Source of the DNA: Candidatus Heimdallarchaeota archaeon
GTDB taxonomy: Archaea > Asgardarchaeota > Wukongarchaeia > Wukongarchaeales > JBHIFL01
Direction of reading: 5' to 3'
Length of the DNA stretch: 54,775 nt
Assembly: GCA_046761065.1 (NCBI GenBank)
Contig: JBHIFL010000019.1
Coordinates: forward strand, 1 to 54,775
Made by a program: the position numbers and the translations under genes. The first letter of the stretch is position 1; the number at the start of each line of letters is the position of its first letter. Below are positions 6,374 through 16,180 of the stretch, piece by piece. Below the pieces are notes generated by a model. That model saw nothing but the letters and a program-made list of their open reading frames with translations. It did no database searches and was not told where the DNA came from.

Positions 6374-6988
6374 TTGCTGCGAATGGAAAAAATGGGGGCA
6401 CGATATCGAGTACAATTCAGGAGAAAGCGTGAGAATAAAACTAACTACTATTTACGCAGAAAGTTGTTAGAATCGAGAGAGCCCCGACTTATTATCCGAA
6501 GGAGTAACAAACATATGACAATACAAGTAACTACGGCACATCCTGAAGGAGATCAGACCGTTGTGGCCGCAAATACCATCCAACTTGTTCGGGATTATGG
6601 CTGGAAAGCCGGAACATGCAATTTACCTGCAGCATACCTAATAGGGCTATTATTAGGACTCCGAGCTCAAAACAAAAATATCACCCGAGCGGTTCTTGAC
6701 ATTGGTTTTCACACCGTGATTTATGGGAGTCGAATTTTTGCGAGTTTAAAAGGAGTCGTGGATTCAGGGCTTCAGGTCCCCCATAATGAGATTGTGTTCC
6801 CAAGCGAAGAAAGAATCCGTGGAGAACACATTGCTAGATACTCAGAGTTATTACAAGCTTCTGAGGAAGAAGAAATGATAAAAAATAAACACCAGTTTTC
6901 AAATTATAAGGAAAGGGGATTAAGCCCTAAAAACGTGCCAAAACACTTTGAACAGACGAAAAAGAAGATATTAACCATGCAAAAGTAG
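6374..6988 (+). CDS. rpl18: 50S ribosomal protein uL18
   Basis: [36 protein letters not shown]. Confidence 0.96.
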
Positions 6989-7001
6989 TAGGAGAAATAA
7001 C

Positions 7002-7690
7002 ATGAGCTTTAGAAGACGAAAACCCCCGAGAATGCCAACTGAAAAAAAAGAATGGGTTCCAAAAACACGATTAGGACGTCTAGTGCAAGAGGGGGATATT
7101 AGTTCCATTGAAGAAATATTTCAACACCACTATCGGATTGCAGAACCCGAAATCGTCGATACGCTGATGCCAAACCTAGAAGAAGAAGTGGTTAACATCA
7201 GCCTTGTGCAGAGAAGCTGTTATGCCTGATTGACAACCAGCTCTGTAAACAAACTGACGCGGGACGAAAGTCGCGATTTAAATCCGTCGTGGTGGTTGGA
7301 AACCGTGATGGATATGTTGGTGTAGCCGAAGGCAAAGCCAAAGAAGTTGGCCCCGCCATCCGAATCGGCATCGCTCGAGCTAAGACGCAACTGACCCCCA
7401 TTCGGAGAGGGTGTGGAAGTTGGGAATGTTCATGTCATGAACTGCATTCCGTACCATTTAAGGTAACTGGGAGATGTGGTAGTACACGAGTTAAAATAAT
7501 CCCTGCCCCAAAAGGGTTAGGTCTGGTCATTGGGGAAAATGCAAAAGCGGTTCTACGTCTGGCGGGAATTGAAGATGCTTGGACTCAAACCTTTGGTGAA
7601 ACCCGGACAACAACCAATTACGTTAAGGCCACAGTTGATGCTTTAAAACAAACATATCGAGTTGTGCATCCAAGGGATTGGATTCGATAG
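7002..7690 (+). CDS. rps5: 30S ribosomal protein uS5, interrupted by a 35-nt BHB-type intron (exons 7002-7213 and 7249-7690; 217 aa after splicing)
   Basis: N-half [20 protein letters not shown] and C-half [27 protein letters not shown] lie in different frames. Removing 7214-7248 gives VQRQTDAG in frame. Confidence 0.9.
7214..7248 (+). other. Predicted archaeal BHB/BHL intron in uS5 mRNA
   Basis: Central helix GCAG(7208-11)/CTGT(7243-46), 3-nt bulges AGA(7212-14) and AAA(7247-49), inner stem AGCTG/CAGCT, outer pairing TTG/CAA and TCAG/CTGA. Contains in-frame TGA at 7227. Confidence 0.85.
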
Positions 7691-7909
7691 ACCTTCCATA
7701 CCAGTTACAAAAATATCTAGTATTCTAGGAAAGACCACTTTCTTAAGAAAGTGGCTTTCATGAAATTCATTAACTCACTAGGTAATTTATACGATTTAAA
7801 CCCTGCCCAAATACATCCTAGTAAAAAAAAGGACAGTCAGAAATTTAAACGTAATAGAAACCTTCACCCTTCAATAATTTAAAGAAAGAAGCTCCCGAAG
7901 GTGAATTAA

Positions 7910-16074: not shown

Positions 16075-16180
16075 TGGTGCCCCGTGGGGGATTTTCCCCG
16101 AAACACACAATGTTTCGATTTTGAACCCCCGTCGCGAGATCGAGAGTCTCGCATGCTTGACCGTGCTACACCAACGGGGC
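16075..16180 (-). tRNA. tRNA-Glu(CTC) with a 28-nt BHB intron at 59/60 (16092-16119); CCA encoded
   Basis: Reverse complement: GCCCCGT..CGAGA-CT-CTC-GA-TCTCG..GGGGGTTCAAA[ATCGAAACA..TGTTTCGGGGAAAA]TCCCCCACGGGGCACCA. Confidence 0.93.

Follow-up and report, generated by a model that had tools for sequence, protein, structure and literature searches.

The gene for the essential ribosomal protein uS5 in the stretch of Asgard archaeal DNA analysed here (54,775 nucleotides, hereafter the window) is interrupted by 35 nt that we take, with a probability of about 0.85, to be an archaeal tRNA-type (BHB/BHL) intron in the uS5 mRNA, which would be removed by the endonuclease EndA together with RtcB. A pre-mRNA intron of this type had been proposed by a reading of the sequence alone, and the proposal is now supported by the single copy of the gene, inserts at the same site in related contigs, compensatory changes in the stems of the insert, purifying selection on the exons and the presence of EndA and RtcB in the genome. 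From these comparisons of sequence we infer the positions of cleavage, the enzymes responsible and the occurrence of splicing itself.

The interrupted uS5 gene and its relatives

The window contains an archaeal ribosomal-protein operon with the gene order L32e-L19e-L18-uS5-L30. Translation of uS5 from its start codon runs into a stop codon within the insert, and the remainder of the gene, up to the stop at 7688–7690, lies in another frame (Table 1). The sequence-only reading had described uS5 as split by a 35-nt, stop-bearing insert, and both that description and its coordinates proved correct, the two frames being seen directly in the sequence. The match to the Pfam Ribosomal_S5 N-terminal domain covers profile positions 14–65, with position 14 falling exactly at 7250, and S5_C follows it; the 70 residues upstream match no Pfam family in their own right. 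The archaeal splicing endonuclease cuts BHB motifs after the second base of each bulge. Removal of 7214–7248 by this rule had been predicted to give a full uS5 of 217 residues; the product is indeed of this length and aligns without gaps with 24 relatives across the segment NI(S/N)LVQ(R/K)QTDAG, the predicted protein reading LVQRQTDAG around the junction, colinear with those relatives. An intron at 7215–7249 is equally possible because the flanking A makes the boundary ambiguous by one base. The assembly (4.4 Mb in 234 contigs, with 91% completeness and 8% contamination) holds this one uS5 locus, and the second, intact rps5 gene that would have undermined the intron reading was not found in it.

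Table 1 Locations of the features discussed. Simple ranges are positions in the window; locations with G, C and L handles refer to the genome assembly and extracted loci. A slash within a motif marks the predicted cut.
Feature	Location	Strand	Remarks
uS5 gene	7002–7690	+	interrupted by 35 nt (7214–7248) with in-frame TGA
uS5 ORF1	7002–7229	+	ends at TGA 7227–7229, inside the insert
uS5 exon 1	7002–7213	+	70 codons plus AG, the first two bases of codon 71
uS5 intron (putative), 35 nt	7214–7248	+	holds TGA 7227–7229, which ends the unspliced frame
uS5 exon 2	7249–7690	+	third base of codon 71, 146 codons, stop 7688–7690
Exon-exon outer helix, 5′ strand	7201–7206	+	pairs with 7255–7260
Exon-exon outer helix, 3′ strand	7255–7260	+	pairs with 7201–7206
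Central helix H, 5′ strand, GCAG (exon 1)	7208–7211	+	pairs with 7243–7246
Central helix H, 3′ strand, CUGU (last paired intron bases)	7243–7246	+	pairs with 7208–7211
5′ bulge, AG/A	7212–7214	+	invariant in 10/10; predicted cut after 7213
3′ bulge, AA/A	7247–7249	+	invariant in all sequences; predicted cut after 7248
Intron stem h′, 5′ strand, AGCUG	7215–7219	+	pairs with 7238–7242
Intron stem h′, 3′ strand, CAGCU	7238–7242	+	pairs with 7215–7219
Apical hairpin of intron	7223–7235	+	stem 7223–7226 with 7232–7235, variable loop
EndA paralogue, crenarchaeal-type catalytic subunit	G000:C15:7589-7843 (L199 1474-2061)	minus	
EndA paralogue, divergent	G000:C2:24654-24914 (L200 1474-2118)	minus	
RNA polymerase A′ (RpoA′) insert	G000:C2; L209 about 2350-2385	minus	Rpb1_1 match starts at profile position 30
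EF-2 insert	G000:C76:15211-15825; L203 1741-1773		10-bp hairpin, CGGAC direct repeats flanking

The intron reading depended on the insert being present in data beyond this assembly, and at least nine samples, assembled independently, contain it. A Logan contig assembled independently from the probable source sample is identical to the window over 7093–7800, insert included, and a contig from another study, ~92% identical, covers 6902–7713 with no gap. A metagenome scan yielded three further contigs with protein identities of 88–96%, and a search with the exon 1 peptide returned seven split N-terminal ORFs of 75–99 aa, the DNA of which was examined. The insert lies at the identical uS5 site in 11 further metagenome contigs. 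Its length in the homologous contigs is 34, 35, 36, 42, 43 or 44 nt, which covers all three classes modulo 3. Every insert-bearing contig has the same exon flanks, GUGCAGAG and ACAAAC, and in all of these contigs gene callers annotate uS5 as two ORFs.

The close relatives of this uS5 (79–98% identity) are all split. Identity to uninterrupted uS5 proteins does not exceed 74% for exon 1 and 68% for exon 2; of those with a named source, the nearest belong to Wukongarchaeota and Heimdallarchaeaceae. A search for a full-length uS5 of at least 75% identity, as might arise from assembly of a spliced transcript, found none. The insert is absent from the two genomes of the same order and from 38 of the same phylum; the closest named genomes to this lineage are Baldrarchaeota and Sifarchaeum (Asgard). 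Because the inserts share one site, the close relatives are split and the gene is under purifying selection, the insert has been retained in a functional uS5 gene across a family-level clade.

The evidence for selection comes from comparison of the window with the homologous contigs, at synonymous divergences of 0.25–0.7 from the window. The dN/dS ratio was 0.09–0.17 for exon 1 (nine contigs) and 0.02–0.07 for exon 2. Over the first 13 codons of exon 2, 10 of the 11 comparisons showed 4–7 synonymous and no non-synonymous differences, and contig L198 showed seven synonymous and one non-synonymous. In 8 of 10 sequences, the exon 2 frame has no ATG, GTG or TTG before 36–42 nt into the exon. As these codons change almost only at synonymous sites and, in those sequences, lack an upstream start, we conclude that they are translated as a continuation of exon 1. 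The relation between the two frames varies: the exon 2 frame of the window is open from 7196; in L112, L192 and L198 a stop ends the exon 1 frame 5 codons after it enters the insert, and the exon 2 frame opens only 3–21 nt before exon 2, with no overlap between the two; and in L111-type sequences the insert has no in-frame stop at all.

At the junction itself, the codons GTG CAG AGA CAA are invariant at their synonymous sites within the intron-bearing clade. Only 8 of the 129 intron-less relatives use AGA for the junction codon, and the splice motif may constrain the exon sequence at this point.

Conserved structure of the insert and predicted splicing

The structure of the insert was analysed in an alignment of 10 distinct insert-bearing sequences. 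The 4-bp central helix H, formed between the end of exon 1 and the end of the insert, is paired in 97.5% of cells, with a change from G-U to G-C in L112. The 5-bp intron stem, h′, is paired in 100% of cells and shows compensatory changes in two of its pairs, C-G to U-A in four sequences and G-C to A-U in one. The apical stem is paired in 97.5% of cells, with one compensatory pair. When the partners were slid by 1–3 columns as a control, pairing was 25–42%. The unpaired intron columns differ by 40–60% between lineages and contain all of the indels, the length differences between lineages being indels of 1–9 nt in the apical loop, whereas the bulges do not vary. A 4-bp helix together with a fully paired inner stem (5/5) at a given position and length occurs at a rate of 1.8e-4 in this genome, and the chance expectation of the core motif is ~7e-4 with the four registers allowed by homology.

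The fold put forward in the sequence-only reading is sound in its core, as the GCAG/CTGT helix, the AGCTG/CAGCT stem and the AGA and AAA bulges are all present, and it fails in its outer pairing. The outer pairs TTG/CAA and TCAG/CTGA can be drawn in the window, yet they are not conserved (77% of cells paired), and we rejected them as conserved outer helices. Another exon-exon helix, 7201–7206 with 7255–7260, can pair in 10 of 10 sequences, its variation being one-sided only (G-U versus G-C). Judged against strict hBHBh′ geometry, h′ adjoins its bulge and the exon helix does not, owing to the mismatch of U7207 and C7250. In the conserved fold the 3′ bulge opens an 8-nt loop (7247–7254), and because the conserved outer helix leaves the 3′ cut within this loop, the uS5 motif is a relaxed, BHL-like one.

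The minimum-energy fold of 7190–7265 is not a BHB, and shuffled sequence folds just as stably (z = 0.05). The best fold that contains the BHB core lies 3.2 kcal/mol above the minimum-energy fold, the helix of which extends to 6 bp, and the RNAalifold consensus also prefers the 6-bp version. Because thermodynamics alone gives no support, the support for the motif is that of covariation and register.

These data suggest the following course of splicing. In the pre-mRNA, the 4-bp central helix would arise from pairing between GCAG of exon 1 and CUGU at the intron's 3′ end, with the 3-nt bulge AG/A and then the 5-bp intron stem following on the 5′ strand. The 3′ cut site, AA/A, would be two bases beyond the helix, in a bulge or loop. 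Cleavage and ligation would join ...GUGCAGAG to ACAAACUGAC, creating the codon AGA (Arg71) and with it a continuous uS5 of 217 residues, and the excised intron would be released, probably as a circle. In its 4-bp helix and 3-nt bulge geometry the motif is like the archaeal BHB of pre-tRNAs that are spliced at 37/38.

Four other explanations were weighed. In a programmed translational bypass the insert would stay in the mRNA and the ribosome would jump 34–44 nt; such elements are known in T4 gene 60 and as the mitochondrial byps of Magnusiomyces, and, like the uS5 insert, they are short, non-coding hairpin inserts of variable length within essential coding sequences. Insert lengths in all frame classes are compatible with hopping, the conserved hairpin on the take-off side would fit a hopping element, and an insert in the EF-2 gene of the same genome (described below) resembles gene 60 in having GGA before it, GGA at its end and a TAA nearby. 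The uS5 insert, however, lacks the hallmarks of bypass elements, namely matched take-off and landing codons and an adjacent stop. Exon 1 ends in CAG-AGA and the insert ends in ...UGU-AAA before CAA, so AGA and AAA are mismatched at the middle base, and a hop from CAG to CAA would lose two residues that are found in 129 of 129 intron-less relatives. No stop adjoins the take-off codon, the first being 5 codons downstream or, in the L111-type sequences, absent, and hopping has no use for a helix between exon 1 and the insert's 3′ end flanked by 3-nt bulges in exact symmetric register. We consider a bypass very unlikely. Programmed frameshifting or stop read-through, whereby the insert would be translated as extra residues, draws on the open exon 2 frame of the window, where a single −1 shift could join the two frames. 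The lengths of 34, 35 and 36 nt (and 42, 43 and 44 nt) would, though, demand +1 shifting, −1 shifting and read-through in sister lineages, and because they fall in all three classes modulo 3 a fixed frameshift is excluded. The absence of frame overlap in L112, L192 and L198 and the divergence and indels of the insert loop columns also speak against translation of the insert, which we find barely credible.

It is likewise most improbable that uS5 is made as two polypeptides, an N fragment of 75–99 aa and a C fragment, that assemble in the ribosome. The two ORFs given by gene callers in all insert-bearing contigs and the purifying selection on both parts would agree with such an arrangement; against it, the break would fall within the S5 N-terminal domain, between Pfam profile positions 13 and 14 of 65, the first 12–14 codons of exon 2 change almost solely at synonymous sites with no upstream start in 8 of 10 sequences, and the tails that read-through into the insert would add to the N fragment are unconserved and range from 5 to 29 residues. 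A pseudogene, an assembly or sequencing artefact or a contaminant contig might be suspected in a metagenome-assembled genome of 234 contigs with an estimated contamination of 8%, all the more as pipelines would call this uS5 broken. Such an origin is scarcely tenable given the same insert in independent assemblies of at least nine samples, dN/dS values of 0.02–0.17 at synonymous divergences up to 0.5–0.7, an assembly with no other uS5 locus and the normal L32e-L19e-L18-S5-L30 operon context.

Splicing enzymes and comparison with known introns

The genome encodes two EndA paralogues and one RtcB. The 195-aa EndA most resembles the catalytic chains of the enzymes from Aeropyrum, Sulfolobus and Pyrobaculum (E = 7e-41 to 9e-30), with the crenarchaeal chains 3p1z_B, 3ajv_B and 2zyz_B closest to it, and visual inspection shows its Tyr, His and Lys positions to be retained. 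The second paralogue, of 214 aa, has diverged; NEQ261 of N. equitans is one of the chains that it matches, and on visual inspection it appears to lack the catalytic His. The pair suggests an (alpha-beta)2 endonuclease, a type reported to cut non-canonical introns (PMC5829648). Relaxed motifs are present in cbf5 and in many crenarchaeal introns and have been attributed to hetero-oligomeric EndA (PMC2738675).

Heavy interruption of tRNA genes has been described in some Asgard lineages (PMC11291895; bioRxiv 10.64898/2026.10.13.758758), in two papers that do not mention protein-coding genes with introns. In the whole 4.4-Mb assembly, ARAGORN found only 17 tRNA genes, 14 of them with introns, and it is probable that multiple or non-canonical introns conceal most tRNA genes here; tRNA genes with non-canonically placed introns are found in this genome. 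On the window ARAGORN detected no tRNA, and Rfam, run on the whole window, gave no family at gathering score. A tRNA-Glu(CUC) at 16075–16180 of the window (minus strand) is detectable only after removal of 28 nt (16092–16119) in the T-loop region. Because the helix adjoining its bulges has a mismatch, relaxed motifs occur in the tRNA introns of this organism as well. The archaeal tRNA introns and the putative uS5 intron share the 4-bp helix, the 3-nt bulges, the predicted cut after the second bulge base and the presumed enzymes. Unlike them, the uS5 substrate would be an mRNA within an operon, with no tRNA body to aid recognition.

Among protein-coding genes, the closest parallel is the pre-mRNA intron of cbf5, which was reportedly described by Watanabe in 2002 and by Yoshinari in 2006 and was treated by Yokobori in 2009 (PMC2738675). 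Its hosts are Crenarchaeota (Aeropyrum, Sulfolobales and Desulfurococcales), and cbf5 is the only gene for which the literature searched confirms archaeal pre-mRNA splicing experimentally (PMC2738675), in keeping with the earlier statement that archaeal mRNA introns are known in very few genes. Like the uS5 intron, that of cbf5 is short (36 nt in Staphylothermus) and lies within protein-coding sequence; its hosts possess a hetero-oligomeric endonuclease, as is predicted for the uS5 host too, and share with that host a wealth of non-canonical tRNA introns; and both genes are mis-called as frameshifted or split by annotation pipelines (PMC2738675). The two differ in that the host gene encodes a ribosomal protein rather than a pseudouridine synthase and belongs to an Asgard archaeon rather than a crenarchaeon, and in that cbf5 splicing was demonstrated by experiment whereas uS5 splicing is predicted. 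The cbf5-type pseudouridine synthase gene of the present genome has a TruB_N match without stop or break (G000:C28:24915-25208; L210), so that in the matched part there is no sign of the classical crenarchaeal cbf5 intron. In the literature searched, the coverage of which was incomplete, we found no BHB intron in an Asgard protein-coding gene or in any ribosomal-protein gene. The uS5 intron very probably extends a very sparsely documented class of archaeal mRNA introns to a ribosomal protein gene and to the Asgard archaea.

The unconventional cytoplasmic splicing of HAC1/XBP1 mRNA in eukaryotes offers a likeness of mechanism class only. There, the endonuclease IRE1 cuts stem-loop sites, Trl1 or, in metazoa, RTCB ligates the exons, and the reading frame changes. 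A short mRNA intron, a protein endonuclease and a tRNA ligase are features in common with the process proposed for uS5; the differences are that IRE1 is not EndA/TSEN, that the recognition motif is another one and that HAC1/XBP1 splicing is a regulated stress switch.

Other interrupted genes and significance

Two further genes of this genome carry short inserts. In the gene for RNA polymerase subunit A′ (rpoA1), a 31-nt insert lies near the N-terminus, between ...ARIITA and TYDEDG, and the main frame lacks the first 29 positions of the Rpb1_1 profile. The helix GCAG/CUGU, the AAA bulge and the 10 nt at the 3′ end (CUCUGUAAAC) are the same in this insert and in the uS5 intron, a likeness that may reflect common descent, an insertion rule or coincidence. 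In EF-2, a 33-nt in-frame insert with one in-frame TAA sits in the G3 motif of the GTPase domain (DTPG/HVDF), with a GGA before it and another at its end. Because CGGAC repeats flank this insert, it could be either a splicing substrate or a hop site like that of gene 60.

The sequence-only reading had also proposed a search for other BHB-split core genes, and we scanned the genome (4.4 Mb). The scan covered ~1.0 million BHB cores, and excision had to join two open, codon-usage-positive frames. It recovered uS5 and also rpoA1, the latter as a BHB core whose excision restores the ORF, yet the 22,164 cases in true register (1,198 after the coding filter) equalled, whatever the stringency, the controls in which intron length was offset by 1 or 2 nt. 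As there is no excess over these controls, the scan gives no independent statistical support for many mRNA introns, and any signal is swamped by a background of gene boundaries and frames open by chance. A BLAST search with the uS5 intron and its flanks found no other copy in the genome, and the motif CTCTGTAAAC is not enriched there (11 seen versus 10 expected). It is possible, though we hold it to be doubtful, that EndA/RtcB splicing is obligatory for uS5, RNA polymerase A′ and perhaps EF-2, and that these mini-introns share an origin or an insertion rule. If so, mRNA splicing by protein enzymes would add a layer to gene expression across the whole genome in prokaryotes closely related to eukaryotes, and mini-introns would have spread between genes.

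Archaeal protein genes are treated as uninterrupted. If the uS5 intron is real, ribosome synthesis in this Asgard clade would depend on the tRNA-splicing enzymes; a coupling of ribosome production to tRNA-splicing capacity, as suggested at the outset, is plausible and speculative. Core genes of this kind would be called broken by annotation pipelines, which would distort both estimates of genome completeness and marker-gene phylogenies. The 10 distinct intron sequences at a single site would also provide a substrate series with which to define the specificity of an Asgard EndA. The heavy load of tRNA introns in some Asgard lineages would then extend to mRNAs, and the finding would bear on ideas of how intron-tolerant gene expression arose before eukaryotes.
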